From a phage: a stretch of DNA of 64,000 nucleotides. Positions 6,928 through 60,929 of this stretch are shown here, piece by piece (positions within the stretch are counted from its first letter, which is position 1; each line of letters opens with the position of its first letter). The stretch is taken from NCBI GenBank assembly GCA_038450185.1, contig GCA_038450185.1_4765.1. The stretch is one strand, 5' to 3'. The notes beneath the pieces were generated by a model, which worked only from the letters and a program-made list of their open reading frames with translations, made no database searches and was not told the origin of the DNA. A program made the translations under genes and the position numbers.

Positions 6928-6967
6928 TGTTTGATTCTCCTAAGTGGTATCTCGTTTCGATGTGTGT

Positions 6968-6996: not shown

Positions 6997-7002
6997 TGCC
7001 TT

Positions 7003-7030
7003 TTTTAAAAAAGCCGACACTAAGGTCGGC
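7003..7030 (-). terminator. hairpin terminator
   Basis: GCCGAC-loop-GTCGGC followed by T-run on the minus strand. Confidence 0.5.
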
Positions 7031-7231
7031 ACATTTTAAAAATTCTTGCTATATATGCAAGCCTCATAATCTAGAGGATGACCGCCAATCCTACCCGGCT
7101 TAATATTCCAACCGCATCGATATTTGCTGACCATGCTAACAGTTTCGGTTCTTAGAGCATTTCTTTGCAAATCATACCCCCTAAATTCTTGTCTATAAGG
7201 ACAGTCCGCTTTGCAAGTTGGCGGTTCTACG

Positions 7232-7423
7232 TCATTTAGAGGGTCGGAAGCAGTTGGCTTTATTATCAATTCTTTGTTTGCAATAATCATAAGCACATCC
7301 CATTGAAGACAATTTAACATCTTCGCAATAAGTGTTGAATCCGTCAAATACAATCACTTCGTATTTGACTCCATCAGCGATAGCTTTTACTTTATACCAT
7401 CCATGCTTGTATAAAATCTTCAT
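7232..7423 (-). CDS. hypothetical Cys-rich small protein (63 aa)
   Basis: ATG preceded by GAGGAAAT; behind promoter at about 7456-7484. Confidence 0.45.
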   Translation of the reverse strand: MKILYKHGWYKVKAIADGVKYEVIVFDGFNTYCEDVKLSSMGCAYDYCKQRIDNKANCFRPSK

Positions 7424-7455
7424 CTTTATTTCCTCAATCTCGTTTCGATGGGTGT

Positions 7456-7484
7456 ATTATGCTATAGTCGTGATCTGGTGTCAA
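7456..7484 (-). promoter_or_regulatory. sigma70-type early promoter, TTGACA-17-CATAAT
   Basis: -35 and -10 hexamers on the minus strand. Confidence 0.5.
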
Positions 7485-7504
7485 TGCCTTTTTTAAAATT
7501 TTAT

Positions 7505-7536
7505 GCAATAAAAAAGCCGACACTAAGGTCGGCTAA
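7505..7536 (-). terminator. hairpin terminator
   Basis: GCCGAC-CTTAGTGT-GTCGGC followed by a T6 run on the minus strand. Confidence 0.5.
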
Positions 7537-7541
7537 TGAAA

Positions 7542-7847
7542 TCATTTAGACAAATAATCATTCTGTGCAATCCGGTCAGCATGTTCCGGCGTTACGTCAA
7601 TTGCAATCACTTTAACGCGCGCTTTCTTGACTGAATTTTCTCGTAGCCAGTGCGTGTGACCGTGCACATTTTTATACTTTGATGCTTTTTCGAAAGTACG
7701 GATCGGACCTGGGTAATCAGCGTAAAGGATCTCTAGGTCTTCTGTGATGTAAAAATATACATCATAATTACTGTTCTCTAGTTTAAGCAGAGACTTTCGG
7801 AACATTGGGAGATTTTCGCGGGTAAATTCAAAGATATTATCTTTCAT
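7542..7847 (-). CDS. small protein, HxHW paralog family member (101 aa)
   Basis: C-terminal HGHTHWL...VIAIDV motif shared with five nearby ORFs; trimmed to internal ATG. Confidence 0.55.
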   Translation of the reverse strand: MKDNIFEFTRENLPMFRKSLLKLENSNYDVYFYITEDLEILYADYPGPIRTFEKASKYKNVHGHTHWLRENSVKKARVKVIAIDVTPEHADRIAQNDYLSK

Positions 7848-7861
7848 AGTATTATCCTCAA

Positions 7862-7888
7862 TAGTTGGATGAAAAGGGGGCTTAACGC
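7862..7888 (-). terminator. intergenic hairpin (terminator or processing site)
   Basis: GGGGGCTTAACGCCCC stem-loop. Confidence 0.4.
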
Positions 7889-7896
7889 CCCGTATA

Positions 7897-8184
7897 TTAA
7901 AACAGTCCTTCCTGTACACCGTAGTAGAGTTCATCGCTGATAATTTCATTAATGCGACGGTGTGCATATTCCTGATTTGCGAAGTTGTCAGCAAGTTCTA
8001 CTTTAGTTTCGCCGTCATGAGTCCATTTAGTGATAACTTTACCATCTGCAAATTTGAAGTTGAACTCTTTAGCTACTGCATCGCGTACCAGACGTGCAAA
8101 CTTATTGTTGCGGATTGCATTGTCGGTTTCGTGTGCAGCGTGAGCGAATTTGTTAACTTTCAGGGTGATAGTAATGTATGCCAT
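7897..8184 (-). CDS. hypothetical early protein (95 aa)
   Basis: ORF behind its own promoter. Confidence 0.5.
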   Translation of the reverse strand: MAYITITLKVNKFAHAAHETDNAIRNNKFARLVRDAVAKEFNFKFADGKVITKWTHDGETKVELADNFANQEYAHRRINEIISDELYYGVQEGLF

Positions 8185-8230
8185 AATTTGATTCTCCTAG
8201 TTAGAAAGTGTATCTCGTTTCGATGGGTGT

Positions 8231-8259
8231 ATTATGCTATACACCCAACCTCATGTCAA
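8231..8259 (-). promoter_or_regulatory. sigma70-type early promoter, TTGACA-17-CATAAT
   Basis: -35 and -10 hexamers on the minus strand. Confidence 0.5.
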
Positions 8260-8265
8260 CACTTT

Positions 8266-8544
8266 TTATAAAATAATTTTTTGATATTTTTCTATGATGT
8301 TCGTGTAATTCACATCAACCGCTAGCACCGTTGCTTCGAATCCACCGTTTAGCCAATGGCTATGATCGTGATCGTGAAAGAAACCTAGACCAGTACGAAG
8401 ACCTTCTTTATATTCGGCGCGTACATTTAGATCATCATCGATAAACAGATAAAACCATGAATTTTTACTAGGATTGATGATACAACCTTTCAGATTCGGG
8501 AGAATATCACGACTAAGAATAAACTTATCACCTACTTTGAACAT
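8266..8544 (-). CDS. small protein, HxHW paralog family member (92 aa)
   Basis: HDHSHWL...VLAVDV motif; trimmed to internal ATG. Confidence 0.55.
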   Translation of the reverse strand: MFKVGDKFILSRDILPNLKGCIINPSKNSWFYLFIDDDLNVRAEYKEGLRTGLGFFHDHDHSHWLNGGFEATVLAVDVNYTNIIEKYQKIIL

Positions 8545-9802: not shown

Positions 9803-9970
9803 TTATTTGTTAATTTCCGGTGCGTTGCTCGGATAGTAACCTTCTTTAACACCCAGATATTTCGCAACCATTCCGGTGATCTTCTGTGCTACTACGATAT
9901 CGAATTTCAGGTAGTCTTCACCGTGGTTTGCTACAATGTATGCTTCGCATTCTGCTTTAGTCTGGAACAT
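9803..9970 (-). CDS. hypothetical small protein (55 aa), paralog of 6060..6227
   Basis: About 90% nucleotide identity to 6060..6227 by eye; same promoter type. Confidence 0.55.
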   Translation of the reverse strand: MFQTKAECEAYIVANHGEDYLKFDIVVAQKITGMVAKYLGVKEGYYPSNAPEINK

Positions 9971-10003
9971 TTTTGATTCTCCTATATCTCGTTGGTATGT
10001 GTG

Positions 10004-10033
10004 CATTATAGGGGATCACCGATCCCCTGTCAA
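10004..10033 (-). promoter_or_regulatory. sigma70-type early promoter with GGGGATC..GATCCCC spacer
   Basis: Near-identical to promoter at 3885..3913. Confidence 0.55.
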
Positions 10034-18966: not shown

Positions 18967-19253
18967 CTTGATACTCCTTAGTTGTTTTGGTATGGGAGTA
19001 TCTTACTACTCCCGTGATATGCTGTCAACTGCTTTTTTATGCAACCGCAAACATCAACATTTGAACATTCTTGGCTGTCTGGCTTTCAAAGTTCTGACAT
19101 TCTTTGATAATGTCCTCTACTTTCTCGCCGGAGATCTCCGCGTAAGTTTCGATTGCCATTTTCAGTACCGCGTCAAAGTTGTTCATTTGATTCTCCTTAA
19201 AGTGTATTTCGTTTCGATGGGGGTATATTACTACCCCCGTTTCATGCTGTCAA

Positions 19254-19472
19254 CTACTTTTTAATGACAAGTTCGAATTTTGCTACCTTGCGTCCTCGTT
19301 TATTGAAAGCAACCCACGGACGGTTTTCAATGTAGAACAATTCTTCGCCAATAATGAATACTGGCTGATTGTAAAGGCGACCCATCAGGTCACGCTGGCG
19401 AATGGTAGTAGATTCGTATACTTCTCCCACTACAAAGTGTTTGCTGATAGAGTCGGTGCAAGTAAATTTCAT
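19254..19472 (-). CDS. hypothetical small protein (72 aa)
   Basis: ORF behind a promoter. Confidence 0.45.
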   Translation of the reverse strand: MKFTCTDSISKHFVVGEVYESTTIRQRDLMGRLYNQPVFIIGEELFYIENRPWVAFNKRGRKVAKFELVIKK

Positions 19473-32570: not shown

Positions 32571-35500
32571 ATGGCAGATTTTTCTCAACATTTCAAGGCC
32601 ACATTTGGCTTTGACGCTGGTAATGAAAAGGTCGTCAATGTAGCATTGGCTGATAAGAATGTCAACACCGATGCGGTCAACGTTGAATTTTTCAATTACC
32701 ATAATGGTATTACTCAGTATGACACAACTCGCGGTTATGATCAATACGGAACTACAATCTATCAAAACCGTCCGTATTATGCAAAAGAAGATATCACAAA
32801 ACCAGCAGGTGACTTTGACCCGACTAAATGGCAAGCACTGCGCACGGACCCACGTTGGGATTATGTTGCAGCAACTTCCGGCGATACTCCTTTAAAGTCC
32901 GGTGATTATATCGCAGCGGACTGTCAGTTTGCAAACTTGACATTCTCAATGCCTACTAATCCGGCAGAGGGCGACACTATAACAGTAAAAGATATCGGTG
33001 GCAAGTGCGGTGTTAATGAGTTATCGTTCCTTGCGGCTGGTCATGAGTTCTATCATAACGGTGTGGTAAACAACCGCAAATGGTATTGTACTACCCCTTA
33101 TGCAATGAACTACTTCATTTTTGCTCGCAATCGCTGGCACGTTTACCAGACGGGAACAGAGCCGCGCGGGGTATATGCACAACCATCTATCGACCCGATT
33201 CAGATGCAAAACGGTGATCAGGTATTCCGCCGTAGTTCTTTGGGTAACATTGTTTTGATGCTTCCTAAGTTTGCTAATAACGGTGATATAATCCAGACTA
33301 CCGATCTTGACGGATTGACTGCAACCAACCATGTTACGGTAAAAGTGCATGAAGGTGCGCAAGAACAATCGATCGGTACTTTCGGGGTAAAAGAAATTGT
33401 TGGTAAGCGTAGCGGTCATGGTGTATTCATATTTGACAAACCGGAAAACTTATGGCGTTTGTGGGATGGTGATCAGTCTGTTCGCTTGAATCCTATCATT
33501 AGTGATACTCGCTTATCCCCCAATAGCTATGTTGCAGTATTTGGTGATCGTGATGTTACCTTGACTTTACCGACCAATGTCGAGCCGGGTGATCGTATTC
33601 AAGTTTCTATGCAGTATATGCACGGAAACCAGACTTGCCGAATCATTACCTCAGAAGAGGATACAAAAATCCTTATGCAGAAAAACATGGTTCAGTTTCC
33701 TAAGCGTAGCGAGTACCCATTCAATGGGGCCGATACATGGACGGGAGTGTCTGAATTGTCTTTCAACGCTGCAAATGATTATGTACCTTATCTGGAGTTC
33801 TCTTATTCAGAAGGTGATGATGGTAAGAAATACTGGTTGGTGGCACATGCTCACCCGATTGTAGAACGAGTAGATCCGACTCGTAAAGATCGTGTTGGTG
33901 TAATTGCACTGGCTACCCAGGATGAAACAAACAAAAACCATGAAGATAATCCTAGCGACGAAGTTGCGGTGACTCCAAAGGTTCTGGCTAATAAAACAGC
34001 CAACGAAACTCGACGCGGTATTGCTCGCATTGCAACTCAAGCGGAAACTCATCAAGATACTGGTTCCAGCTTCCTGGATGATGTTATCGTTACACCTAAA
34101 AAGTTAAATGACTGTGTTGCTACCGAAGCCCGTCGTGGTGTGATGGAAATTGCAACTCAACATGAAACCAACGAAGGTTTAGACGATACCCGCGCAATCA
34201 CTCCTAAGAAGTTAGAAGAGCGTCGAGCGTCAGAGGATCTTGCTGGTATCGCTGAAATTGTTCAGGTAGGCGGTAATGCTGCCGCTCTAAGGGGTGAAGC
34301 TGGTACAGGGATCTATAACATCAATGACCATGCTAAAATTGTTACACCGCAAAACATCAACGAAGTTAAGGCGACCGAAACTTCCCGTGGTGTTGGGTAT
34401 CTGGCGACGGATGAGGAAGTTCAAGGGGCTACTGAATCAACCCCGCAAGATGCATTGCTGATCACTACTCGCACGTTAACCAAGCGCACTGCTACCGAAT
34501 CCCGTACTGGTATCGCTGAAATTGCAACTCAAGAAGAAACAAACTTAGGCCAAAGTGATGACCATATCATCACACCTAAAAAACTGCATACTCGCCGCGC
34601 AACGGAAACTTTACATGGTTTAGCAGAAATTGCAACTCAAGAAGAGTTTGACGCAGGTCTTGACGATGCTCGCATTTCTACCCCATTGAAGATTAAAACC
34701 TTCTTTGAGAATGCACAGCGTTTGAAAGTAGACCCGACTCAGGGGCTTAACCTTACTGGTGATTTGTGGCAAGGTATCATGATCAGCGGTCTGGACGCAA
34801 CCGAAGACACAAAAGGTGTCGCTAAAGTTGCTACTACTCAGCTTACGGATGCTGGTCAAGATGATACTACAATCATCACGCCTAAAAAGCTGCAAGGCAA
34901 AAAAGCCACCGAAGGTAAAGAAGGTATTATCCGCGTTGGTACTCAAGCCGAAACCGTGGCTGGTACACTGGCTAATGTAGCAATTTCTCCGAAGAACTTC
35001 AAATATGTTGTTCAGACAGAGGATACATGGAAAGCAACCGAAGCGCGTCGTGGATTCTTGAAAGTTGCTACTCAGGAAAACTGTTTTGTTGGTGATAATC
35101 TGCAAGGTTCTACTCAAGAACTAGGAAACTACCAGCATGACGGAATTGCTGTTACCCCGAAAGGATTAAACTACGCACTTGCTAATTTCTTACCTAAGAT
35201 GGCAACTGCTCAGAATAGTTTGAAATTGGGTAACGTAGAGGCCGCTAAATGGGCGCGTAGAGACATTGACCAGACCATAGAGAGCAATTACACGTTTAAT
35301 AAAAACGTTAACGTGAAGGGCGATTTAGAGTGCTTAAAATCAGGTTCCTTTGAAACTCTATCTGTGACTAAGAACTCGACCGATGTTCCGAGTAATGGTC
35401 ATCTGGTGTTGGGTGAGCGTGGAGTTGACGGTCACACCGGAATTACTCTGCATGGCACAACCGCATCGGAAGGCATGAAAAACTCTTGGTCTATTATCGT

Positions 35501-36311
35501 TGGTGGCACTGGAACAGCGCAAGTTGTTGATAGTGATGCTATCGCTTTCGGTAAAATCAATGATGGTGGAGTCGTTGAGCATTACGCCTTTGCTATGAAA
35601 CACAATGGCGACGCGACAGCATATAGAGACTTTATTGCAGGTCGTAACCTGTATGCGAAACAAGGCGGTTTATACATTGTTGACCAGTCTAATCCGGCAA
35701 TGACTCGTTCCCCAGATGGTATGCTGAATATCGGTCACGGTGGAAGTGTTAACATCAAGGCAGGTCATCAAACGTTAACTACAGAGATCGCCGGACAGAA
35801 ATATCAGATCGTACACGCAGGAAACGCTGACGAAGTTCTTAACCGTCAGTTTGTTAAGAATGCTGGCGATACAATGGTCGGTAAGCTGACTATGGATAAT
35901 GCGCCTATTGTTTCTGTTAAGCATGAAGCTAGCGCGGCAACCGCTCCGGCAATCGGTAACATCGGTTTCTGGAATATGCGAGTTACTACCCAGAACATCA
36001 AAGAAACTTATCCAGAGAAGAAAAACGGTACTCTGATGCAATGGGGTACTGACGCGGACGGGCTTACCCAGCTTTGGTCCCCCGATGGTACTCATAAACA
36101 TTATATCCGTTCCGGTACTGGTGGTCAATGGACCGCATGGGGTGAAATTTACACCAAACAGAATAAGCCTACCGCTCAGGAAATCGGGGCAGTAGTTGCA
36201 GAAGGTGGTTTAATGAACTCTATGACGGTTCGTGATTGGATCAAAGTTGGTAATGTTAAAATCATCGCCAATAATCTGACTCGTACCGTAGACTTTATCT
36301 GGGAAGACTAA
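32571..36311 (+). CDS. 34: long tail fibre proximal subunit
   Basis: 1246 aa; repeated ATQ.ET..G.DDT..ITPKKL motifs and LAEIATQEEFDAGLDDARISTPLKIKT as in T4 gp34. Confidence 0.85.
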   Translation: MADFSQHFKATFGFDAGNEKVVNVALADKNVNTDAVNVEFFNYHNGITQYDTTRGYDQYGTTIYQNRPYYAKEDITKPAGDFDPTKWQALRTDPRWDYVAATSGDTPLKSGDYIAADCQFANLTFSMPTNPAEGDTITVKDIGGKCGVNELSFLAAGHEFYHNGVVNNRKWYCTTPYAMNYFIFARNRWHVYQTGTEPRGVYAQPSIDPIQMQNGDQVFRRSSLGNIVLMLPKFANNGDIIQTTDLDGLTATNHVTVKVHEGAQEQSIGTFGVKEIVGKRSGHGVFIFDKPENLWRLWDGDQSVRLNPIISDTRLSPNSYVAVFGDRDVTLTLPTNVEPGDRIQVSMQYMHGNQTCRIITSEEDTKILMQKNMVQFPKRSEYPFNGADTWTGVSELSFNAANDYVPYLEFSYSEGDDGKKYWLVAHAHPIVERVDPTRKDRVGVIALATQDETNKNHEDNPSDEVAVTPKVLANKTANETRRGIARIATQAETHQDTGSSFLDDVIVTPKKLNDCVATEARRGVMEIATQHETNEGLDDTRAITPKKLEERRASEDLAGIAEIVQVGGNAAALRGEAGTGIYNINDHAKIVTPQNINEVKATETSRGVGYLATDEEVQGATESTPQDALLITTRTLTKRTATESRTGIAEIATQEETNLGQSDDHIITPKKLHTRRATETLHGLAEIATQEEFDAGLDDARISTPLKIKTFFENAQRLKVDPTQGLNLTGDLWQGIMISGLDATEDTKGVAKVATTQLTDAGQDDTTIITPKKLQGKKATEGKEGIIRVGTQAETVAGTLANVAISPKNFKYVVQTEDTWKATEARRGFLKVATQENCFVGDNLQGSTQELGNYQHDGIAVTPKGLNYALANFLPKMATAQNSLKLGNVEAAKWARRDIDQTIESNYTFNKNVNVKGDLECLKSGSFETLSVTKNSTDVPSNGHLVLGERGVDGHTGITLHGTTASEGMKNSWSIIVGGTGTAQVVDSDAIAFGKINDGGVVEHYAFAMKHNGDATAYRDFIAGRNLYAKQGGLYIVDQSNPAMTRSPDGMLNIGHGGSVNIKAGHQTLTTEIAGQKYQIVHAGNADEVLNRQFVKNAGDTMVGKLTMDNAPIVSVKHEASAATAPAIGNIGFWNMRVTTQNIKETYPEKKNGTLMQWGTDADGLTQLWSPDGTHKHYIRSGTGGQWTAWGEIYTKQNKPTAQEIGAVVAEGGLMNSMTVRDWIKVGNVKIIANNLTRTVDFIWED

Positions 36312-36344: not shown

Positions 36345-37484
36345 ATGACACAAGAGATAGAATTACGCAACACTGGAATTACGTTTGCGCATTTCGACGA
36401 AGACTCTGCGACATTTACAAGCATTTCAGAAAACAACTCTGTAATGTATAAGCTGGAAGTGCGCGGATCTAATGCAGATTCTACCAAACCAGCAAGGATT
36501 AGATTTAATGGAGTGGAGATCGTTGGTACTGGCTATGAAAATGGCCTAAATTTTAAAGTTCTTACTCCAACTGGACAACTACACGAAGAAAAGGTATTCT
36601 ATGGTCGCGGTGCTGTTTTGGCAATGCGTGATTATCTTTCTTTGCTGAAAGGTGACTATATCATTGCGATGGCAACTCATGGAGAATTGTTTGCAGATCC
36701 GATAAGTGATGTTGTATTTTCTAAGATGGGATCTGTATCATTCCCGAATCACATTTTGTTACAGCAAATGCCTCGTGTATCCTATGCAGCAATTTATTCT
36801 ACTAAAATGGGTAAAATTGTGTGCGAAGGGATGCAAGCAACTAACGGGGAAGGACAAAATTCATCTATACAAATTGAGAAAGTCTATGATACTATAGATG
36901 ATCTTGCTATAACAGGAACACCACAACGATTTTTAGATTATCCGGTTGAGTATGTTAGCGAAGATGCCGAACATTTCGAGCTAATACAATGGCCTCATGA
37001 TGAGACCAGCGCCCCACTTGAGGATTTTAACATAAAGGCAGGTGACAAACTATCAATATCCTTTGAATTGTTCCGTGATAGTGCCGCAGCCGCAGCCAAC
37101 GTAACAGCGCGTTTCTATCACAACTACTTCACCGATGGACAATATAAAACTGGTGTTCGATACAATGCCAGCAAAAAAGACCAGTGGGAAAAGTTTGAAG
37201 CAGTCTATACCGTACCGGAAGGTGTCGATAGTGTAGTAACTGGTTGTATCAGATATCCAACCAACTCAAATGAAGGTATTGTTAAAATTAGAAACATACT
37301 AATAACGCCGATCAGTGGAGTCGTCAAAACTACTGGTCCGACTTCATTTGGTGTTAATGGTGTTAGAACAACTCATATTCAGGATAACGGTGATTTTACT
37401 AACCCTGTAATGAGTCTTCTTAAACTTCCTAGAGACAATAAACATATCACATCCAACAACTTTAAAGAGTTCGATGTTGATTAA
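36345..37484 (+). CDS. 35: long tail fibre hinge connector
   Basis: 379 aa (T4 gp35 about 372) between 34 and 36. Confidence 0.7.
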   Translation: MTQEIELRNTGITFAHFDEDSATFTSISENNSVMYKLEVRGSNADSTKPARIRFNGVEIVGTGYENGLNFKVLTPTGQLHEEKVFYGRGAVLAMRDYLSLLKGDYIIAMATHGELFADPISDVVFSKMGSVSFPNHILLQQMPRVSYAAIYSTKMGKIVCEGMQATNGEGQNSSIQIEKVYDTIDDLAITGTPQRFLDYPVEYVSEDAEHFELIQWPHDETSAPLEDFNIKAGDKLSISFELFRDSAAAAANVTARFYHNYFTDGQYKTGVRYNASKKDQWEKFEAVYTVPEGVDSVVTGCIRYPTNSNEGIVKIRNILITPISGVVKTTGPTSFGVNGVRTTHIQDNGDFTNPVMSLLKLPRDNKHITSNNFKEFDVD

Positions 37485-37644: not shown

Positions 37645-37652
37645 TATAAATA
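37645..37652 (+). promoter_or_regulatory. T4-type late promoter TATAAATA
   Basis: Exact TATAAATA about 34 nt upstream of the gene 36 ATG. Confidence 0.65.
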
Positions 37653-37685: not shown

Positions 37686-39176
37686 ATGGCAGATTTGAAA
37701 TATGGATCTACTGTAGGTGGATCTCCCATTTGGACGCAAGGAAACTTGACGATCCAGCCAGCGGGGGATCAGCTTTTCTACAAAGGTCATAAAATCTATA
37801 CCGCTTTTGATAGACCTTCGGCTACCGATTTTGATGCTGTTAGTGCATCTGAAGGTGGCACATTTCAAAAGCAAGTTCATTTCGAGGAAGGTTTAAGCGT
37901 AGGTAGCGCATCGGCTGGAGAAACCAAAAAGAATGGTATCTTTAAAGGTCAGAGTGACGCTGCTAATTTTGACGGCGTAAGCTGGGGTTTGCATTCATGG
38001 AAGTCAATCGGCTTTGTTAATGCCCGTGATGGCGTTATTATGGCGTATATTGACACCACAACGGGCGAATTTAAGTCTAAAGGGACTATCGAAGGGACAA
38101 CCATTAAAGACACAGGTCAACGCGTCTATAGCCCTGTTAATAAACCAACGAATAATGATTTAGATTTGGTGTCTCGTCGCGGTGATACTCTCACAGGAAC
38201 ATATAATTTAAACACTGTCACTGTTAAACTATCGGTTGATTCGAAATTAATTGCAAGGGAACGTGATTTAATTAATTTTGATGCGACTAAGATCTATTAT
38301 GGTAACGTTCTTGATACGTTGGTCTTCCGAAGTAAAGATGAGCCTACCATTTTTGTTAATGGCATAGAAGGTCGTTTTTATCACACCAACAATAAACCAA
38401 CTAAAGCCGATGTTGGACTAGGCAATGTCACCAATGATGCACAGGTTAAACGTGCTGGTGATATTATGGAAGGTAACTTGCAAGCGCCTAGAATGTTGGC
38501 GACAAACGATCCTGCTGGTCCTAATGAATTGGTTCGTTTGAGCTACTTTGAGAGAAAATCAATGGTAGCAAATCCAACCATCATAGGAAACGTTGATTGG
38601 AACACTCTTATTAATCGCGGTATCTATCGTGTGGAAAATGCTGGGTCGGGTACTAATAAACCGTCTGATAGCTATTATAACGGCGTTTTGATGGTATATC
38701 GCCCAGAAGATGCGGTCGGTACTCGTCGAATTGTTCAGGTGTATTATCCTGAATCTATTGACCATCCGATGTGCTGGCGTTCGTGTTCTAATGAATCATG
38801 GACTGCATGGAACTATGTAGATCACCGTAAATTGGCTGATATTCGCTATGTTAACGTCACTGGCGATACCATGACAGGACCGTTAACTGTTCCTGCTGCA
38901 AATGGCGTTAGAACGGCTAGAGGTGCATATAATGGTGATAACTACTATGCTGGGTTAAATAGTGCTGATGGCACTGCTATGATTCACCGTATCAGCGATA
39001 TTAAAGCCACCGAAAAATTGGGTATTACTCACGATTCTAAAGCTGTTTTCATTAAAGCGCGTGGAAATACTCAAGACACAGACCGCTATGAACTTTACCA
39101 CGAAGGCCATAAACCGACACCCGCAGAGGTTGGCGCGGTTCCACTTAATGCGGTGATTGATTTTGGTACTTTCTAA
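37686..39176 (+). CDS. 36: long tail fibre distal hinge subunit, enlarged
   Basis: N-terminus MADLKYGSTVGGSPIWTQGN matches T4 gp36; 496 aa against about 221 in T4. Confidence 0.75.
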   Translation: MADLKYGSTVGGSPIWTQGNLTIQPAGDQLFYKGHKIYTAFDRPSATDFDAVSASEGGTFQKQVHFEEGLSVGSASAGETKKNGIFKGQSDAANFDGVSWGLHSWKSIGFVNARDGVIMAYIDTTTGEFKSKGTIEGTTIKDTGQRVYSPVNKPTNNDLDLVSRRGDTLTGTYNLNTVTVKLSVDSKLIARERDLINFDATKIYYGNVLDTLVFRSKDEPTIFVNGIEGRFYHTNNKPTKADVGLGNVTNDAQVKRAGDIMEGNLQAPRMLATNDPAGPNELVRLSYFERKSMVANPTIIGNVDWNTLINRGIYRVENAGSGTNKPSDSYYNGVLMVYRPEDAVGTRRIVQVYYPESIDHPMCWRSCSNESWTAWNYVDHRKLADIRYVNVTGDTMTGPLTVPAANGVRTARGAYNGDNYYAGLNSADGTAMIHRISDIKATEKLGITHDSKAVFIKARGNTQDTDRYELYHEGHKPTPAEVGAVPLNAVIDFGTF

Positions 39177-39246: not shown

Positions 39247-42162
39247 ATGGCAGATTTAAGCAGAATCCAATTTAAACGTACTAGCACTAAAGGCCGTCGA
39301 CCTGATGCTGGTACGATGAATCCGGGGGAATTGGCAATCAACCTTGCGGATCAATATCTTCTTACTAAAAATGATTCCGGTGCTATTATCAATTTAAGTT
39401 GTCCTCCGGTTTATGACAGCGATGTTACAATGGCGGGTAAGGTTAAAGGAAATAATTATATTTTAAGTAAAACCGCTAATTATTTTGAAGACCAAACCGC
39501 GCGAGATCTTAATTATTTTGGTGCGTTTCGACCGAATAATGCTGATGGTTGGTCTAACTTGATTCTGAACATTCCTCATCCCAGCGGTAAAGCACACGGT
39601 CGCGGGTTTGAATTTGAATATGGTTCTAGTTCCTCTCAGGTTAAAACCTATGGCTTTGATAAGGATGGTAACAAGAGATTCAGCTTTCGCATGTATCACG
39701 AAGGTGATAAACCTACTCCCTCAGAATTGAACGTCTATAGCAAACAAGAAATTGACCGTATGTTTGTTAAGAACGTTAAAATGGTTGTTCCTTCTGGTGG
39801 TGCAACCCGTGGTTATTTTAAAATTGCATCCGCAATGATCCCGCAGAGTGGTCGGATGGCGTTTCTGCGAATCTATGGTGGTAATGGATATAATGTAAAC
39901 TCATATGATCAAGTTGATTTTCTTGAAATTGTTATTCGTAGTGGTAATAATAACCCTAAAGGCGTTAGTATTGCTGCATATCGTCGAAATTCTTTGAACG
40001 TCCATGAAGTATTTGCAATTAATACTTCCGGTGATAACTATGACATTTATGTTAACTATGGTCGCTTCACCGATAACGTTATTGTAGAGTTTGGAAAAAC
40101 TGTTGATGTTGCATTGACTGTTCACGATGTTCCTGAATTTTCGGCGACTAAACCAGAAACCGGAACTAAATTTGATGCTCGTGTTATTACTATGTTCAAC
40201 ACCGAAAACAAAGCCGGAACGTTGATGTTTGATAATAACTCACAAACAACCTATGATATTGTTAGCCTTAATAACGTACCAGACAACAATAAAAAATATA
40301 TGCGTAAATTCCGCAGTCGTGCGGCGGAAACAATATGGCATGAAACTGTTCAAGGTGATGTTTATCGCCTAGCGACAGGGGCTACCGATCAGAAAGAAGT
40401 GTTAAAGATTGTAGGTAGTGATGGTTTATTTGTCAATAGACTTCATCTGCAAGGCAATAACGCGATTCGTATGTGGCGTCCTACTGGTTGTAGTAACTAT
40501 TTTGAATATATGGATCAGCGAGACGGGGCTAATAAACGTCAAGGCTGGTTTGGTTTTGGTTCTACAGAAACCAACGATTTTCAATGGTATAGTGACGAAG
40601 GTAAAAACTTTGTTAAGCTAGAAGCAAGTGGTCAAGTATCTTTAAGCGCAGGTGCAACCAAAATTGTATACACTAATGGTCAATATGTAGCTGCCAATTC
40701 TGATGCATACCGTATGATCTTTGGTAATTATGGTGCATTCTGGCGTAATGACGGCACTAAAGTTTATCTTATGTCTACTGCCGAAAATGATAGATTTGGT
40801 GGCTGGAATGCCTATCGTCCATTCATTTATGATTTAACTTCCGGTAACGTTCAATTAGGCGGTGATGGTAACGAAGATGCATTAACGTTAGAAAGTGCTT
40901 CTCGTGCCGCTCGCTTTAGTAATGACGTTTACATTAAGAAAGGGCTTTTGACTTTCGACGCTGGGCGATTAAATTCCCGCGATTACTTCCGGTTTAACCA
41001 TTGGGGCGATAGCAATAACGGTCGCGATAACATTTTACAGCTTGACGATAGCATAGGTCCACACTTCACCACTGAACGTACTTTAGCAACTGGTTCAATT
41101 AAAACTAAATTCTTCGGTAATTTGGAATCTGCTGGTCAAATTAAATGGGGTAAAGGGACCGCCACATCTACGTTTACTCTACGTGTATGGGGTAGCGATA
41201 GCCGTAAACAAATATTTGAATGCGGCGATGAAAGCGGGTGGCATTGGTATACCCAACGCGCGGGCGGTCCTGATACTTCTGCAATTGATTTTGCCATCAA
41301 TGGTACTGTTAGGCCTCAAGCAATTCACACTGGCGGTAATATCACTATCAACGGTGCTGATATTGAGTTTAAACGCACTGGCAATAAGCACATCTGGTTT
41401 AGAGATCCAAACGGCTTAGAGTTAGGTCTGTTGTACTGCGATGATGCTGGCGTTATGCGTATGCGCGGTAAGAAACAAACCGAAGTCTGGAAATTCGGCG
41501 GTAAGATGATTCAACTTGAAACTGGTACTGTAACCGGTGGCGGTAGTGGTCTGATTCGTGGTAGCGTTGCTGGTGGTAGTTGGACTAGCTGGCGCGATCG
41601 TGCTTCCGGTTTACAGGTCGACTGTCAACAATCAACCGTTTCCGCTCATAACGTATGGAAAGCAACCCATCAAGGTAAATATCATATAGCAGCAATGGGT
41701 GTACACGTTCCTAGTGGTACTATCGGAAATGCTATGGTGCGTATGCACGTACACGATGCAACTTTTGACTTTGGTGCGAGCGGTGACTTCCAGGCAAGCC
41801 GTAATGGTAATTTTAACGATGTTTATATTCGTTCTGATGCTCGCCTTAAAATCAATAAGGAAGAGTATAAGGAGAATGCCACCGATAAAGTTAATCGCTT
41901 GACGGTATACACCTATGACAAGGTTAAATCTTTAACCGACCGTACTGTCATTGCTCATGAAGTTGGTATTATTGCTCAGGATCTTGAAAAAGAATTGCCG
42001 GAAGCCGTAACAACTTCTAAGATCGGCGATCCAGATAATCCAGAAGAGATCTTAACAATTTCTAACTCCGCTGTCAACGCTCTTTTAATTAAGGCGTTTC
42101 AGGAAATGAGCGAAGAACTTAAAGCCGTTAAAGCTGAACTAGCGGAACTTAAAAAGAATTAA
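39247..42162 (+). CDS. 37: long tail fibre distal subunit with C-terminal intramolecular chaperone domain
   Basis: N-terminus MADLSRIQFKRTSTKGRRPDAG..GELAINL matches T4 gp37; C-terminal roughly 108 aa begin at an S-D-A-R-L-K motif. Confidence 0.85.
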   Translation: MADLSRIQFKRTSTKGRRPDAGTMNPGELAINLADQYLLTKNDSGAIINLSCPPVYDSDVTMAGKVKGNNYILSKTANYFEDQTARDLNYFGAFRPNNADGWSNLILNIPHPSGKAHGRGFEFEYGSSSSQVKTYGFDKDGNKRFSFRMYHEGDKPTPSELNVYSKQEIDRMFVKNVKMVVPSGGATRGYFKIASAMIPQSGRMAFLRIYGGNGYNVNSYDQVDFLEIVIRSGNNNPKGVSIAAYRRNSLNVHEVFAINTSGDNYDIYVNYGRFTDNVIVEFGKTVDVALTVHDVPEFSATKPETGTKFDARVITMFNTENKAGTLMFDNNSQTTYDIVSLNNVPDNNKKYMRKFRSRAAETIWHETVQGDVYRLATGATDQKEVLKIVGSDGLFVNRLHLQGNNAIRMWRPTGCSNYFEYMDQRDGANKRQGWFGFGSTETNDFQWYSDEGKNFVKLEASGQVSLSAGATKIVYTNGQYVAANSDAYRMIFGNYGAFWRNDGTKVYLMSTAENDRFGGWNAYRPFIYDLTSGNVQLGGDGNEDALTLESASRAARFSNDVYIKKGLLTFDAGRLNSRDYFRFNHWGDSNNGRDNILQLDDSIGPHFTTERTLATGSIKTKFFGNLESAGQIKWGKGTATSTFTLRVWGSDSRKQIFECGDESGWHWYTQRAGGPDTSAIDFAINGTVRPQAIHTGGNITINGADIEFKRTGNKHIWFRDPNGLELGLLYCDDAGVMRMRGKKQTEVWKFGGKMIQLETGTVTGGGSGLIRGSVAGGSWTSWRDRASGLQVDCQQSTVSAHNVWKATHQGKYHIAAMGVHVPSGTIGNAMVRMHVHDATFDFGASGDFQASRNGNFNDVYIRSDARLKINKEEYKENATDKVNRLTVYTYDKVKSLTDRTVIAHEVGIIAQDLEKELPEAVTTSKIGDPDNPEEILTISNSAVNALLIKAFQEMSEELKAVKAELAELKKN

Positions 42163-42204
42163 GGAAAAATCCCAGGGAAGGGAAACTATTAAGGAGAAAC
42201 GGCT

Positions 42205-42444
42205 ATGGTCTATAATATCGTCATTGGTGCTTTGTCTAGTTTCGGAATGAAACTATTATCAAAGTTAATTAGTGAAAAGATGCTCACTAAAATTTTCTTC
42301 TATTGCGCTCGTCGTCTTGCGGCTTATACCAATACGCCAATTGATGATCGTTTTGTGGAAGAACTTTATAAGGAGTTTAATAAAGATCAGTCAGAAGATA
42401 GTAACGAGCAAGATAAACCTAGTGATAGTCAACTACCTAAATAA
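42205..42444 (+). CDS. hypothetical small protein (79 aa) between gene 37 and holin
   Basis: Strong RBS AAGGAG; hydrophobic N-terminus and acidic C-terminus; no similarity recognised to gp38. Confidence 0.45.
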   Translation: MVYNIVIGALSSFGMKLLSKLISEKMLTKIFFYCARRLAAYTNTPIDDRFVEELYKEFNKDQSEDSNEQDKPSDSQLPK

Positions 42445-42477: not shown

Positions 42478-43134
42478 ATGCAAGTTTCTGAAAAAGGGAA
42501 AGACTTTGCTATCTCAAATGTCCTGCGCGCTATTTTCACAACTAAAAGCACGGAGTTGCTCGTACTTCGTGTTTTTGCTGCCGTCGTGTTGTCCGTATTG
42601 GCATTTGTCGTTTATAGTAAAAACGAGTTATTTGCGCTTTATAAAGAGACTCGTTATGAGACTTATGCTCACATTCTCCAGGTAGAGAAAGACCGCAATT
42701 TTGATAATGCAGCACAGGAGCAGTTACAGATAGTTCATGTGTCGGCTGATGCCGATTTTTCTGCTGTTTTTAGCTTTCGTCCGAAAAACCTAAACTATTT
42801 TGTTGATTTGGTGGCATATGAAGGAAAGCTACCGCATACGATCGATGAAAAGAATTTAGGCGGATTCCCTATCAATAAAACGAGTGAAGAATATCGTAGG
42901 CATCTTTTAGGTAAATCATATTTTACCGATAAAGATTTCCAGTATATTCCATCGAGGGAGAAAAAATTAGAGAATATCGATATAGGGTTTATGTATTCTT
43001 GTCCTATATTCAATCTCGATAATGTCTATTCTGGTAGTATCGCCATTGCATGGAAGAATAAACCGGATATTGACATTGAGAATTTGGATACTCTTTGCAA
43101 TCAATCTGCCAGAATCCTCGGAAGGATTAGATAA
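42478..43134 (+). CDS. t: holin
   Basis: 218 aa, same length as T4 holin T; LEQLQIVHVSADADFSAVFSFRPKNLNYFVDLVAYEGKLP and C-terminal ARILGR match. Confidence 0.85.
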   Translation: MQVSEKGKDFAISNVLRAIFTTKSTELLVLRVFAAVVLSVLAFVVYSKNELFALYKETRYETYAHILQVEKDRNFDNAAQEQLQIVHVSADADFSAVFSFRPKNLNYFVDLVAYEGKLPHTIDEKNLGGFPINKTSEEYRRHLLGKSYFTDKDFQYIPSREKKLENIDIGFMYSCPIFNLDNVYSGSIAIAWKNKPDIDIENLDTLCNQSARILGRIR

Positions 43135-43169: not shown

Positions 43170-43418
43170 TTATTGGCGCATAGAAGCCCCTGAATCACAT
43201 TTTGACGCTGTATGATGAAAACAGGTAGCGTACCAGTCATCGGCTTGTTTGTCTTCGTCAGAAAACGCGTAATTTCGTTGTATGCCGTTTTCTACTTTGA
43301 CCAGCGCAATAGCTGTTTCTGGAAGATCAATCAATCGGACAAAATCGCCATCTTCCCATTCTACACGAGCAATATCATAACCCATCTCAAAGTATACAAT
43401 CGCTTGTCCTAATTTCAT
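43170..43418 (-). CDS. hypothetical protein (82 aa)
   Basis: ORF, 4-nt overlap with upstream gene. Confidence 0.4.
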   Translation of the reverse strand: MKLGQAIVYFEMGYDIARVEWEDGDFVRLIDLPETAIALVKVENGIQRNYAFSDEDKQADDWYATCFHHTASKCDSGASMRQ

Positions 43419-44984: not shown

Positions 44985-45743
44985 TTACTTGCAAACGTAT
45001 TGATCTACATCAATTGCGCCACCGAATGTAGGATGACGTTTTTCGAATCGAATAGTTCCGTCGTTTGGTTCGAAAACGGAGTATTCATATAGATCTTTCT
45101 TGCCAACATTCTTATAAAACCCGCCTTTAGTCATAACGGTTTCTTGTACGTTTGCTTTGTGTACGTTGTATTCATCAATGTATACAAAATCAACCATCTT
45201 CCCATTTTTAATTGTTACTTTAAGATCTCCTGGTTGGTTTCCATATTTGGCATACAGTGGCGCTTCTTTAATTTTTGTGGAAATTCCATCTTTCATACTC
45301 CACTCATAACGAACGGTGCATTGATAGGTAAAAGTTTCGACCTTCGGTTCTTCTACCACTTTTTCTTCCTGTTTCGGTTGTTCTTCTTCAACCTTCACAG
45401 AAGTCTCTGAATCGCTTTCTGACGCGGTTTCTTCTTTAGGTAATACATTCATCAAGTTTTGGATTTGAGCGTTGTATACAGCCTCCAGTGGCTGAATCTG
45501 CCCGATATTGATCATTGTATCACGAACAGTTTTATTCCAGTTGCGTTGCTCTTGTTTCAGAGACGGATCAATCTTAACAGCTTTAACATATACTTCATGA
45601 AGTTTCGAATCCAGTGCGGAGATTGACTCATTAACACAAATAAACTTCTCTGATTTGGTAGTAGCCTTAGTGCAATCAAAGGACGCAGCATTAGCACCTA
45701 AAGCAGTAGCAGAAAGAACGATAGCAGCGATAATGTTTTTCAT
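44985..45743 (-). CDS. secreted protein with LprI-like (DUF1311) N-terminal domain
   Basis: Signal peptide MKNIIAAIVLSATALGANA; then FDCTKATTKSEKFICVNESISALDSKLHEVY as in lysozyme-inhibitor LprI-type domains. Confidence 0.45.
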   Translation of the reverse strand: MKNIIAAIVLSATALGANAASFDCTKATTKSEKFICVNESISALDSKLHEVYVKAVKIDPSLKQEQRNWNKTVRDTMINIGQIQPLEAVYNAQIQNLMNVLPKEETASESDSETSVKVEEEQPKQEEKVVEEPKVETFTYQCTVRYEWSMKDGISTKIKEAPLYAKYGNQPGDLKVTIKNGKMVDFVYIDEYNVHKANVQETVMTKGGFYKNVGKKDLYEYSVFEPNDGTIRFEKRHPTFGGAIDVDQYVCK

Positions 45744-45969: not shown

Positions 45970-46000
45970 TTTGATTCTCCTTCGTTGTCTTGATGAGTTC

Positions 46001-46041: not shown

Positions 46042-46323
46042 TTATTTTCGCCATTCACCGGAAACAATGAAGTTTGTAAAGTGATTGTGGTCCGTGATAA
46101 TGTCATTAAGTACCATATGCGGATATGCTTTAGTGTAATCACGTTTACGATCAGTCATCCAACCAACGAAAGTCGGTGCAAAGTACGGCACACCGTCAGA
46201 TGATGCCATATTAAACCCTTTATCAGCCATAAATGCAGCCGCCCTAAGATTTTTAATTGAAGTAGTGCGACTAATTTCAAAAACTTTATCGGTAAAATTC
46301 ATTTTAAACCCCCACTCGTGCAT
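46042..46323 (-). CDS. hypothetical protein (93 aa)
   Basis: ATG-initiated ORF. Confidence 0.4.
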   Translation of the reverse strand: MHEWGFKMNFTDKVFEISRTTSIKNLRAAAFMADKGFNMASSDGVPYFAPTFVGWMTDRKRDYTKAYPHMVLNDIITDHNHFTNFIVSGEWRK

Positions 46324-47256: not shown

Positions 47257-47529
47257 TCACCAGTCAAGAGCGCGTGTCTCTGCGTCTTCCCATGCTTGAT
47301 CCATAACAGCCTTGAAAACATATTCTAGAGTATCATCTTTAGAGAATCCGAAGACTTTAGACGGAATATCTTCGATTGCTACTCCCGCAACTTCTGCATT
47401 ACGCGCTTGGCAATAATGCAACTCTAAGTTATCGAGATAGCGACCGCCTAATTTCTCCATATCATCCCAGCATTTCCAGTAACCTACTTTATCTGCAATT
47501 GCCAACACTTTGCTGTTTTCGTTGTTCAT
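47257..47529 (-). CDS. hypothetical protein (90 aa)
   Basis: Trimmed to internal ATG. Confidence 0.4.
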   Translation of the reverse strand: MNNENSKVLAIADKVGYWKCWDDMEKLGGRYLDNLELHYCQARNAEVAGVAIEDIPSKVFGFSKDDTLEYVFKAVMDQAWEDAETRALDW

Positions 47530-47560
47530 CTTTGATTCTCCTTTTGTTTGGTATGTGTGT

Positions 47561-47589
47561 ATTATGCAATGATGGATTATGGAAGTCAA
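47561..47589 (-). promoter_or_regulatory. sigma70-type early promoter, TTGACT / CATAAT
   Basis: -35 and -10 hexamers on the minus strand. Confidence 0.45.
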
Positions 47590-47605
47590 CAACTTTTAAA
47601 ATAAA

Positions 47606-47628
47606 AAAGCCGACCACAAGGATCGGCT
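47606..47628 (-). terminator. hairpin terminator
   Basis: GCCGATC-loop-GGTCGGC then T-run on the minus strand. Confidence 0.5.
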
Positions 47629-48236: not shown

Positions 48237-49612
48237 CCCTTCTTAAGTTCTTTAAGATCTTTCTTATATTCCTTCATTGCGGTCGTCTTTGTCCAATACT
48301 CATATTCACTATGATGTTTATCGGCATCTTTGACCAGTCGATCATACTCTTCTTGAGTAACGCTATACAATGGCATAGAAACTAGCTTATCGGCGTATGG
48401 ACGCAGTTTTTCATGTCCATTGATGGATTGCATTACCTCGGCCTTTTTCTTTCCCTGTAGCTCGATTTCGCCCTTAATTACAAGGTCGATAAATTCAGCT
48501 TTAGCCATTGCATAATTGTATGCTTCCAGTGTTTCCGCTTGCATCAATTCAATGCGTTTATCTACATAGCCTAATCGGATTTCGACGAATCGACGGATCA
48601 GATCGCTCGCTTTTTCGAATACTTCTACTAAACCACGTTCGTTAACTACTACGATATTCTGGGCTACTAACTGCGTTAGTTTAAAATCCTTCATGATTTG
48701 CTCATGTCGAGCGGATTCATCTTCGCTTTTGAAATAATCACGTTTCAGTGTTACTTCAAATCTGAATCCGTCCTTAGAGCAACGGTCATTATACGATACA
48801 ATCAGATCTTTTTCTTCCAGTGCATCCAGTACCGCTACATATTCTTCACGGTCGAACTTATAAGGAACTTCTGATATTGTCAGTTTAGTCTTGCCGTTTA
48901 GTTCATATGTACCCTCAAGAATCACACCATCGCGATCATCTCGCGGGATAACTTTACCCGTGAATTTCGGGAATTGAACACTAGGTTCTTTATCCAGTTT
49001 TCCGGCAAGTGCTAGCTCTGTGCATTCAATAAGGCTTTCCAGTGAATGCGGTAAAATGTCAGTTTTATACCCTGTAGCAATACCACTAATACCGTTAGCC
49101 AATACCATTGGAACAACTGGCAAGTAGAACGCTGGCGGGATGTGTTCCAGATCTTCGTGCTTAGGTGCGCAATTCATATCTTTATAGATTTTAAAGAAGT
49201 TTTCATGAACACGAGCAAAGATATAACGTGCCGCACCTGCTTTCTGGACTAAACGCGATCCGAAGTTACCTTGACCGTCAAGCAGTGGAGTATTATTGCT
49301 CCATGTATTCGCCATGAGTGATCCGGCTTCTACGGCATTAGTTTCCCCGTGGTGATAACCCAACTCAGCAACACCAGATCCAATATCTGCCATCTTACGG
49401 AATTTCTTACGGTCGCCTTTACTCTTTTGAAGTGCGCACTCCATAACAAAGCGTTGCACTGGTTTAAGCCCATCCACTAATTGAGGAATCCCGCGTTCCT
49501 CGGCAGAATAGATCGCATATTCCTTAGCTTCATTATGTACAATGCTTTCAAGGCTGCGGTAAGTAAATGTGTTTACAATTTGACTAATTTTATCCATCTT
49601 CACCTCATACAC
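48233..49612 (-). CDS. 52: DNA topoisomerase II medium subunit (GyrA-like)
   Basis: 459 aa; GyrA-type PQLVDGLKPVQRFVM motif; T4 gp52 about 442 aa. Confidence 0.8.
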   Translation of the reverse strand: MYEVKMDKISQIVNTFTYRSLESIVHNEAKEYAIYSAEERGIPQLVDGLKPVQRFVMECALQKSKGDRKKFRKMADIGSGVAELGYHHGETNAVEAGSLMANTWSNNTPLLDGQGNFGSRLVQKAGAARYIFARVHENFFKIYKDMNCAPKHEDLEHIPPAFYLPVVPMVLANGISGIATGYKTDILPHSLESLIECTELALAGKLDKEPSVQFPKFTGKVIPRDDRDGVILEGTYELNGKTKLTISEVPYKFDREEYVAVLDALEEKDLIVSYNDRCSKDGFRFEVTLKRDYFKSEDESARHEQIMKDFKLTQLVAQNIVVVNERGLVEVFEKASDLIRRFVEIRLGYVDKRIELMQAETLEAYNYAMAKAEFIDLVIKGEIELQGKKKAEVMQSINGHEKLRPYADKLVSMPLYSVTQEEYDRLVKDADKHHSEYEYWTKTTAMKEYKKDLKELKKG

Positions 49613-60149: not shown

Positions 60150-60868
60150 GACGCATCAATCGGAAGCCCGTATTTCACGCGTTCTTTTTGTGCTGGCGTT
60201 AAGTTCTCATACTTAGAAAGAGATTCAATCAAAACGCTGGTATATTTTAGCACGATTTCGGTATTGTTTGCAATAGCCTTAAGTTTTTCTTCTTTCTTGT
60301 TGATTTCGCTAAGGGCTTGCTTGAGATCTGCAATTTTCTGATAACGTTCTTCCATACGTAAGAGAGTATTTTTAATCGCTCGCTCGGCTGCCTCTGCTTT
60401 CTCCGGTTCGTTGTGCTTTTTGTGGCGCTCTATTGCTAATTTCTTTTCTTCGATTGCCATTTCCTGATTTTTGATGCGATTCTCGTTAAGTTCGATCCAC
60501 TCGATGTACTTCGCACGTAGGGCAATTTCATCATCAGAAAGTTTACCGTTAGTTCCTAGTTCCTGGATCTCTTTAAGAGATTCGATAGTGTGATTGCCAC
60601 GGAAAGAATTGTATTTCAGTTTAACCGGAATTACATTGCCATCAACATATCCCAGATTGCAATCAATGCGCTCTAAGGAGAGTCCGTCATCACCTTCACC
60701 GAAAGCCTCACCTGAATAGGCACAATGAGTCTGGCGGTAAATGTTACGCACAGTGACTAAGCTCATAGAGAAGTCTTTGTTGCGACGTGAAGCACCAGCC
60801 ATGATAGAGTTCAGCCGGAAAACAACCAGCGCCAATTCTTCGTTAGATTTAAAAGCAAACAGTTTCAT
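60113..60868 (-). CDS. srd: Srd-like protein
   Basis: 251 aa at the T4-syntenic position between dda and the Mod-like gene; identity is from position and size only. Confidence 0.45.
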   Translation of the reverse strand: MKLFAFKSNEELALVVFRLNSIMAGASRRNKDFSMSLVTVRNIYRQTHCAYSGEAFGEGDDGLSLERIDCNLGYVDGNVIPVKLKYNSFRGNHTIESLKEIQELGTNGKLSDDEIALRAKYIEWIELNENRIKNQEMAIEEKKLAIERHKKHNEPEKAEAAERAIKNTLLRMEERYQKIADLKQALSEINKKEEKLKAIANNTEIVLKYTSVLIESLSKYENLTPAQKERVKYGLPIDASWIELMKAKVGL

Positions 60869-60929
60869 AATTGATTCTCCTTAGTTGGTATGTGTGTATT
60901 ATTGTCTATCTGGTTTGTGCTGTCAACAC

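Follow-up and report, generated by a model that had tools for sequence, protein, structure and literature searches.

A gp37 with a self-cleaving-type chaperone domain and a probably displaced gene 38 in the long-tail-fibre locus of an RB49-like phage

The distal long-tail-fibre locus considered here is very probably the standard module of RB49-like phages, built on the plan of T2, T6 and S16 with gene 38 displaced from its usual place. The self-cleaving chaperone domain at the end of its gp37 is real, and it is a published and ordinary arrangement; as the arrangement is already known, the value of the analysis is mainly that of a correction. Taken by itself, the window, that is the whole 64-kb stretch of DNA that was analysed, suggests a T4-like phage that lacks gp38 and has gp37 as its receptor binder, and host-range or engineering work guided by that picture would target the wrong protein. 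Published receptor specificity in RB49-like phages resides in gp38, whose gene is separated from gene 37 by more than 50 kb, and the chaperone domain would ready the end of gp37 for capping by gp38. The trap is one of window-based annotation, since absence of a gene from its usual slot is not absence from the genome.

In the favoured model gp37 would be made as a precursor of 971 aa, the last 108 residues of which would nucleate trimerisation of the beta-helical fibre, and the chaperone domain would then cut itself off after Ser863 through a Ser863-Lys868 dyad. The gp37 end so exposed (…NDVYIRS) would be capped by one copy of gp38 carrying the receptor-binding loops. Gene 38 itself would have been relocated to a variable region close to rI/tk, with the slot between 37 and t now occupied by a member of the PM2 gp l family. 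Within this model, T2/T6-type cleavage, the receptor role of gp38 and the displacement in RB49 are taken from the literature (PMC3157838, PMC9569957, PMC12032242).

The phage and the layout of its fibre locus

By nucleotide comparison the window is from a Krischvirus (RB49-like coliphage): the region from gene 37 to t shares 89-94% nucleotide identity with RB49-like phages, and the DNA flanking it 97-99%. The features of the locus, including those within gp37, are as follows.

37645..37652, + strand: late promoter of T4-type consensus, TATAAATA, 5′ of gene 36
37686..39176, + strand: gene 36, distal hinge/connector of the long tail fibre, 496 aa (phrog_16472, full-length)
39247..42162, + strand: gene 37, precursor of the distal subunit of the long tail fibre, 971 aa (phrog_1699, E=6e-178)
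40498..40830, + strand: trimerisation domain of the Gp34_trimer type in the gp37 shaft, aa 418-528 (PF21446, E=9.6e-31)
41398..41832, + strand: distal tip of mature gp37, aa ~718-862, a putative docking platform for gp38
41833..41850, + strand: predicted autocleavage site and Ser-Lys dyad (from the translation and homolog alignments)
41836..42159, + strand: intramolecular chaperone domain of the Peptidase_S74 family, aa 864-971, with predicted release once the trimer has folded
42205..42444, + strand: 79-aa ORF, equivalent of RB49p252/Dc5 (phrog_402, E=5.5e-20)
42478..43134, + strand: gene t, T4-type holin (Phage_holin_T PF11031, E=2.1e-61; phrog_860)

The order 34-35-36-37-small ORF-t is identical in RB49, with 96% identity for the small ORF and 99% for t. 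The coordinates in a preliminary description of the locus are correct, and the 79-aa ORF is, as it said, the only one between 37 and t. The gene 36 product matches Phage_T4_gp36 weakly and is 96% identical to RB49p250. Exact matches to the late promoter consensus number three in the whole window, two of them shortly 5′ of genes 34 (32535) and 36 (37645), and there is none between gene 36 and t. The promoter at 37645 is likely the start of a late transcript 36-37-ORF79-t, on which the four genes would be co-transcribed.

Overall gp37 is 79% identical to its RB49 counterpart, but the identity is mosaic along its length and is only 38-76% in aa 101-150, 351-450 and 651-850. As judged from the alignment, this mosaic shaft and tip is merely a different gp37 allele, and an identical gp37 protein is present in Logan SRR28796287 contig_12. 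The trimerisation domain at aa 418-528 resembles the T4 gp34 structures 4UXE and 5NXF and that of Mu S, 5YVQ. T4 gp37 occupies the same position in the fibre and has the N-terminal and shaft architecture in common with gp37 of the window; it differs in having its own needle-shaped receptor-binding tip and in lacking an S74 domain.

The chaperone domain and its predicted cleavage site

That the C-terminus of gp37 is an intramolecular chaperone domain, as first proposed from an S-D-x-R-x-K motif, is confirmed by an HMM search in which Peptidase_S74 (PF13884) matches aa 863-922 over the full model (1-58 of 58) with 44.8 bits and E=1.5e-11, the Pfam cutoff being 22 bits. The domain makes up the last 108 of the 971 aa and lies 3′ of fibre trimerisation domains. 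It is about 96% identical to that of RB49 and 64% identical over its 108 aa to the C-terminus of T6 gp37 (E=5e-38), a resemblance far beyond chance. Further relatives are the C-termini of EndoNF, T5 pb1 and GA-1 gp12 and the ICA domain of MyRF (MEROPS S74).

Nucleotides 41818-41862 translate as DVYIRSDARLKINKE, in which the dyad stands in the context DVYIRS followed, beyond the predicted cut, by DARLK. Ser863 is encoded by 41833-41835, Asp864 starts at 41836 and Lys868 is 41848-41850. With Ser863 in this position the predicted cleaved piece is exactly 108 aa, where the preliminary description had counted roughly that number from the motif. Five residues of the motif (S, D, R, L, K) do not vary across an alignment of 14 homologs, and the spacing of Ser863 and Lys868 (i, i+5) is the same as that of the dyads of endoNF, S911/K916, and MyRF, S587/K592 (PMC8326128). 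It is from these features that we infer cleavage after Ser863, and folding of the trimer followed by this self-cleavage is the likely route of maturation.

The same C-terminal motif, VYIRSD.RL, is found in gp37 of T6 and of PaulHMueller, each with an adjoining gene 38, and the shaft of T6 gp37 is 45% identical to that of the window (E=3e-48). In S16 gp37 (6F45_A) the chaperone domain aligns, with SSDRRIK against RSDARLK here (E=8e-11 with a profile), though a phmmer search of PDB with full-length gp37 misses 6F45, which is matched only with the C-terminal 271 aa or the profile. In T6, PaulHMueller and S16 the gp37 chaperone domain coexists with a gp38 at the tip (Efimov 2022, PMC9569957), and so one does not stand in for the other. 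The earlier proposal that the tip folds by autochaperone and proteolytic maturation thus stands as the likely route, but not its second half, that this happens instead of by way of gp38/gp57A: T6 and S16 have both, and RB49 keeps gp57A (RB49p127). The T4 protein called gp38 is unrelated, a chaperone absent from the virion (Trojet 2011, PMC3157838; S16 structure description).

Fibres of the T2/T6/S16 type combine a homologous gp37 bearing a cleavable-type C-terminal domain, which is found here, with a gene 38 directly 3′ of gene 37, which is not; the 79-aa ORF is there instead, a known RB49 variant. Gene 38 adjoins gene 37 in T2 and T6, where mature gp37 is unlike that of the window over its distal ~145 residues, and it is likewise adjacent, unlike in the window, in S16, the long tail fibre tip of which is (gp37)3-gp38 (PDB 6F45).

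Gene 38 and the tip of mature gp37

The preliminary description held that no recognisable gp38 is present, and this is true of the locus and of the 64-kb window. The best tblastn match of RB49 gp38 to all 64 kb has E 3.9, a scan for glycine-rich motifs in all window ORFs that reach 150 aa gave no gp38 candidate, and the genes within 10 kb 3′ of gene 37 include none with a match to a fibre-assembly family (T4 gp38-like/Tfa-like). Relatives, however, encode a distant gp38. In RB49 this protein, an adhesin of the T2/T6/S16 type, is the product of RB49p079 (45367-46143; PF05268, 7e-72, and PF21721, 3e-17), and it aligns with S16 gp38 (6F45_D) at E=8e-50 over its full length, including the N-terminal attachment domain. 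Gene 38 lies 53-57 kb downstream of t in all four genomes measured, RB49, GoldenSnicker, Delraymugoa and PHB13, in the variable region near rI/tk, and it has the same displaced context in five independent metagenome contigs. Among the 30 listed relatives of the gp37 locus, gp38 was found in 23, and also in Delraymugoa, which was checked separately. The displacement of g38 in RB49, with a small ORF in its place, is described in Trojet 2011 (PMC3157838), citing Desplats 2002.

The final 3 kb of the window correspond at 99% to RB49 8988-11987, so that gene 38 is expected ~33 kb beyond its right end, in the counterpart of RB49 40-50 kb between dam and rI/tk. In the run from which the identical gp37 comes, SRR28796287, gp38 was not found, the five gp38 cluster representatives looked up all being from other runs. 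The expected locus is outside the window, and we infer that this particular genome also encodes gp38.

What gp38 would dock onto is the distal tip of mature gp37. Its identity with RB49 is 68-76%, lower than that of its flanks (90-96% in neighbouring parts). BLASTP against T6 gp37 finds nothing past aa ~717, and between aa 718-862 and the S16 tip sequence similarity was not detected, although the final ~25 residues of the tip do align with gp37 of T6 and PaulHMueller (F.F...G...N..VYIRS). With the tip lacking detectable similarity to T6 and S16, the gp38 docking geometry is conjectural and a conserved docking surface is unsupported by the sequence. Homologs of the tip occur in prophage fibres at 55-72% identity, and near one of these, a Salmonella prophage fibre with the tip and chaperone module at 55% identity, a recognisable gp38-type gene was not found.

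The greater variability of the tip, the prophage fibre without a gp38-like neighbour and the lack of gp38 in the window would all suit a phage from which gp38 is wholly absent, its chaperone domain replacing gp38/gp57A and the gp37 tip binding the receptor in the manner of the T5 L-shaped fibre, where in pb1 the receptor-binding domain is directly 5′ of the chaperone domain and there is no capping adhesin. Such a reading is very unlikely. Besides the conserved distant gene 38 of the relatives, the gp57A retained by RB49 and the joint occurrence of domain and gp38 in T6 and S16, the host-range mutants of RB49 (E230K) map to gp38 (Efimov 2022, PMC9569957), and receptor assignments and predictions for Krischvirus follow Gp38 variants (PMC12032242). 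The idea in the preliminary description that the receptor-binding tip is within gp37 accordingly runs counter to the published mapping of receptor specificity in RB49-like phages to gp38, and in contrast to T5 a separate gp38 is expected here.

A division of labour between the two proteins, in which gp38 binds outer-membrane proteins while aa ~718-862 of gp37 also bind a surface structure, e.g. O-antigen, is unlikely, though less so. The same drop in identity over the tip would fit it, as would the spread of the tip and chaperone module among prophage fibres, one with no detectable gp38 partner, and that so small a protein as gp38 should recognise several O-antigens has been called ‘counter-intuitive’ (Efimov 2022, PMC9569957). 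On the other hand, the RB49 mutants in that work that gained growth on an O-antigen strain had changes only in gp38, fibre shafts are mosaic for reasons other than binding, and the tip matches no binding-domain family. Double binding of this kind would be compatible with a displaced gp38. If true, it would mean two receptor-binding elements in series in RB49-like fibres, and could explain the use of both O-antigens and outer-membrane proteins, a combination that Efimov 2022 found difficult to square with the size of gp38.

The 79-aa ORF in the slot of gene 38

The 79-aa ORF has an AAGGAG ribosome-binding site 8 nt upstream. Profile comparison assigns its product to the PM2 gp l (P18) family: precomputed matches to PF26925 Phage_PM2_Gpl exist for the protein itself and for all 15 homologs, and hhalign of the family profile with PM2 gp l gives a probability of 88.9% and E=2.4e-6, while NCBIfam gave no match. 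The N-terminus of the protein is basic and its C-terminus acidic. The hydrophobic N-terminus attributed to it earlier is slight and only borderline, with a maximum Kyte-Doolittle 19-residue mean of 1.45 against 2.85 for the membrane helix of holin T. A classical holin was considered and rejected, the hydropathy being under the usual threshold for a membrane helix.

Standing in the slot of gene 38, and with homologs directly 3′ of a tail-fibre gene in Felix O1-like and Kolesnikvirus phages, the ORF could be thought a functional gp38 analog, be it a tip protein or a small chaperone of the tail fibre. The preliminary description had named this as an outcome that would count against its own reading; when checked, the notion is extremely unlikely, as the ORF is a member of the PM2 gp l family and tail fibres are absent from PM2. 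The gp l of PM2 is, we assume, the protein P18. Nor does the ORF have similarity to gp38 or Tfa families, and its neighbours here and elsewhere include lysis-type genes: it adjoins holin t, the gene directly after the Felix O1-like homolog is i-spanin-like and has a lipobox ORF embedded in it, and a Vibrio phage homolog is 3′ of a lysozyme-like gene.

In the favoured model, with gp38 encoded at its distant locus, the 79-aa protein is probably a lysis accessory protein. P18 of PM2 is described in PMC9502842 as a lysis factor required for disruption of the outer membrane. RB49-like phages have T4-type spanins (Kongari 2018), and so an additional outer-membrane disruptor would look redundant in them. 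PM2 gene l is placed like the 79-aa ORF, last in a late operon and beside a holin-type gene.

The long-tail-fibre block and its gp37 allele

Megablast places the phage among the RB49-like phages, genus Krischvirus, its nucleotide identity to them being 89-94% across 37-t and 97-98% across the 22 kb that follow, and the last 3 kb of the window correspond to RB49 8988-11987 at 99%. The block 34-35-36-37-79-aa ORF-t is of the T4 long-tail-fibre type.

Genes of the block (ORF listing, identities backed by family scans)
32571..36311, plus strand, gene 34
36345..37484, plus strand, gene 35
37686..39176, plus strand, gene 36, 496 aa
39247..42162, plus strand, gene 37, 971 aa
42205..42444, plus strand, 79-aa ORF
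42478..43134, plus strand, holin t

The motif TATAAATA is present at 37645, and late transcription of 36-37-79-aa ORF-t would start from it. The match of gp36 to Phage_T4_gp36 is weak and covers aa 57-154 only; the length of the protein, the same in RB49, is more than twice the ~220 aa of Trojet 2011 (PMC3157838).

The genes neighbouring gene 37 are 96-99% identical to those of RB49, and within gp37 stretches at 90-100% identity to RB49 are interspersed with others at only 38-76% (aa 101-150, 351-450 and 651-850). Sequence searches with the gp37 tip, aa 718-862, detected no similarity to the T6 or S16 tips, only its last ~25 residues aligning with T6 and PaulHMueller gp37. The tip plus chaperone module has homologs in prophage fibres of enterobacteria; a Gp38_N-bearing protein comes next in some of these and is lacking in one. 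An apparent chimera, the 303-aa prophage protein P0037 (E. coli GCA_031535085.1, locus L015, 5001..5912), is encoded directly 3′ of a 1140-aa fibre that, like it, has an S74 domain, there terminal. Its aa 1-162 comprise the N-terminal attachment domain of gp38 and GP38's first half, joined to a gp37-like end that has an S74 chaperone domain of its own (aa 193-251, …NDVYIRSDRRLK…). The protein may stem from genuine recombination or from faulty assembly.

The chaperone domain and its putative cleavage site

The C-terminal chaperone-type domain reported for gp37 in the preliminary description is borne out by Pfam, as Peptidase_S74 spans aa 863-922 with the entire model covered (44.8 bits against a cutoff of 22 bits, E=1.5e-11). 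The boundary in translation reads DVYIRS|DARLKINKE, with Ser863 at 41833-41835, Asp864 at 41836 and Lys868 at 41848-41850, and the fragment past Ser863 is exactly 108 aa. Motif residues S, D, R, L and K are unchanged in an alignment of 14 homologs, and the Ser863/Lys868 spacing is that of the catalytic dyads S911/K916 of the endosialidase endoNF and S587/K592 of MyRF (PMC8326128). PDB matches of the domain profile are S16 gp37 (6F45_A, E=8e-11), the MyRF ICA (7DC3, E=4e-6) and the fibre 8JOV. That the domain is ~96% identical to RB49 while the remainder of gp37 is mosaic, down to 38% locally, fits a conserved folding function. By analogy with the family, the gp37 precursor would trimerise starting at this domain, and the dyad would then self-cleave after Ser863, freeing the 108 aa. 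T6 gp37 in the record AF052605 reads SDSRLNINK, with Asn in the expected catalytic-Lys position and an ambiguous residue close by, which may be a sequencing error of that 1990s record.

Displaced gene 38 and receptor specificity

As first noted, no gp38 homolog follows gene 37, and tblastn found none elsewhere in the window either (best E=3.9). The empty slot had been taken for absence of gp38, but in RB49 the gene is displaced: RB49p079 (45367-46143, minus strand, 258 aa), annotated g38, matches PF05268 GP38 (E=7e-72), PF21721 Gp38_N (E=3e-17) and S16 gp38 (6F45_D, E=8e-50). Its counterpart lies 53-57 kb downstream of t in the nearest gp37-locus relatives, GoldenSnicker, Delraymugoa and PHB13, and in the same displaced context in five unrelated metagenome contigs; of the 30 relatives listed for the gp37 locus at least 23 have gp38, Delraymugoa having been checked separately. 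Because the window ends at RB49 ~11,987, gp38 is expected about 33 kb past it, where a first reading could not see it.

A terminator-like hairpin, GCCCCTTAATTGGGGCTTTTCTT, immediately precedes the displaced g38 in RB49 (46144..46200) and Delraymugoa. No late-promoter consensus was found near the displaced gene, the sole TATAAATA in RB49 1-50000 being at 48724..48731, 2.6 kb upstream of g38 and before rI. Intergenic sequences of 30-100 bp that are 78-97% identical to the RB49 g38-locus flanks recur in the window at 6923..8281, 9968..10011, 19186..19264, 47523..47607 and 60865..60902. They probably represent the PeSL (promoter/stem-loop) elements reported from RB49/phi1 and proposed as mediators of gene shuffling (PMC4122927).

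Nor is the chaperone domain an alternative to gp38, as had been proposed, for both occur together in T6, PaulHMueller and S16. T6 gp37 is 64% identical to the window protein in the C-terminal domain (E=5e-38) and 45% in the shaft (E=3e-48); T6 and PaulHMueller gp37 have the VYIRSD.RL motif in common with it, with gene 38 directly next, and the domain is also found in S16 gp37, whose crystal structure includes gp38 at the tip. For RB49 the combination is explicit in Efimov 2022 (PMC9569957). Of the suggested non-T4 folding route, one part stands: a T4-type gp38 chaperone is absent, and folding of gp37 most likely depends on the protein's C-terminal domain. Independence from gp57A does not, this general fibre chaperone being kept in RB49 (RB49p127).

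Receptor specificity, previously suggested for gp37, maps to gp38 in the RB49-like lineage: the sole changes in new-host mutants of RB49 are in gp38, E230K alone or together with Y231S (Efimov 2022, PMC9569957), and Krischvirus Gp38 variants decide the use of Tsx, OmpF or OmpA (PMC12032242). As in the S16 structure, one gp38 would dock via its N-terminal helical domain on the exposed gp37 end, and its loops, from the literature, would bind the receptor. RB49 gp38 retains Gp38_N, but the gp37 tip of this phage has no detectable likeness to those of T6 and S16; docking is the weakest step of the mechanism. An independent binding function of this variable tip is quite improbable. The S74 domain, gp38 capping, g38 displacement and the small slot ORF are all already described in RB49 and relatives, and the sole addition made by the window is a further mosaic allele of gp37.

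The 79-aa ORF and genes downstream of t

The ORF that occupies the gene-38 slot is preceded by a good ribosome-binding site, is conserved across Krischvirus and belongs to phrog_402 and, by precomputed Pfam matches, PF26925 ‘Phage_PM2_Gpl’. In profile alignment its family matches PM2 gp l, which we take to be P18, with 88.9% probability (E=2.4e-6). P17 and P18 of PM2 act as lysis factors, and outer-membrane disruption needs P18 (PMC9502842, citing Krupovic 2007). The ORF adjoins holin t; in a Vibrio phage its homolog comes after a lysozyme-like gene, and in Felix O1-like phages and Kolesnikvirus the homolog directly precedes a gene in which a lipobox ORF is embedded and whose product has a membrane helix at the N-terminus and a coiled coil. 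Together these two make a spanin-like pair, overlapped spanins being listed for these phages (Kongari 2018). From family and genomic context the 79-aa product, whose N-terminus is of borderline hydrophobicity only, is most likely an accessory protein in lysis rather than an analog of gp38.

In Felix O1-like phages (Escherichia phage VpaE1, locus L006, 3992..4558) the gp l-family gene is directly followed by that for a 123-aa protein with N-terminal membrane helix and coiled coil, in which a 35-aa ORF with lipobox LLGC is embedded; the arrangement resembles a compact lysis cassette closing the tail-fibre operon. Members of the gp l/P18 family are widely distributed, among them proteins of Felixounavirus, Kolesnikvirus, Vibrio, Aeromonas and Cronobacter phages, and are usually labelled hypothetical. 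Here the family member stands beside holin t in a phage already equipped with T4-type spanins.

Just downstream of t, an 82-aa ORF (43170..43418, minus strand) has a weak precomputed match to PF11195 ‘Tad2-like’, whose name derives from an anti-Thoeris protein. Further on, a 252-aa ORF (44985..45743, minus strand) has a clear signal-peptide-like N-terminus (MKNIIAAIVLSATALGANAAS…), and its probable RB49 counterpart is ORF260c, which has a weak DUF1311 match (Nolan 2006).
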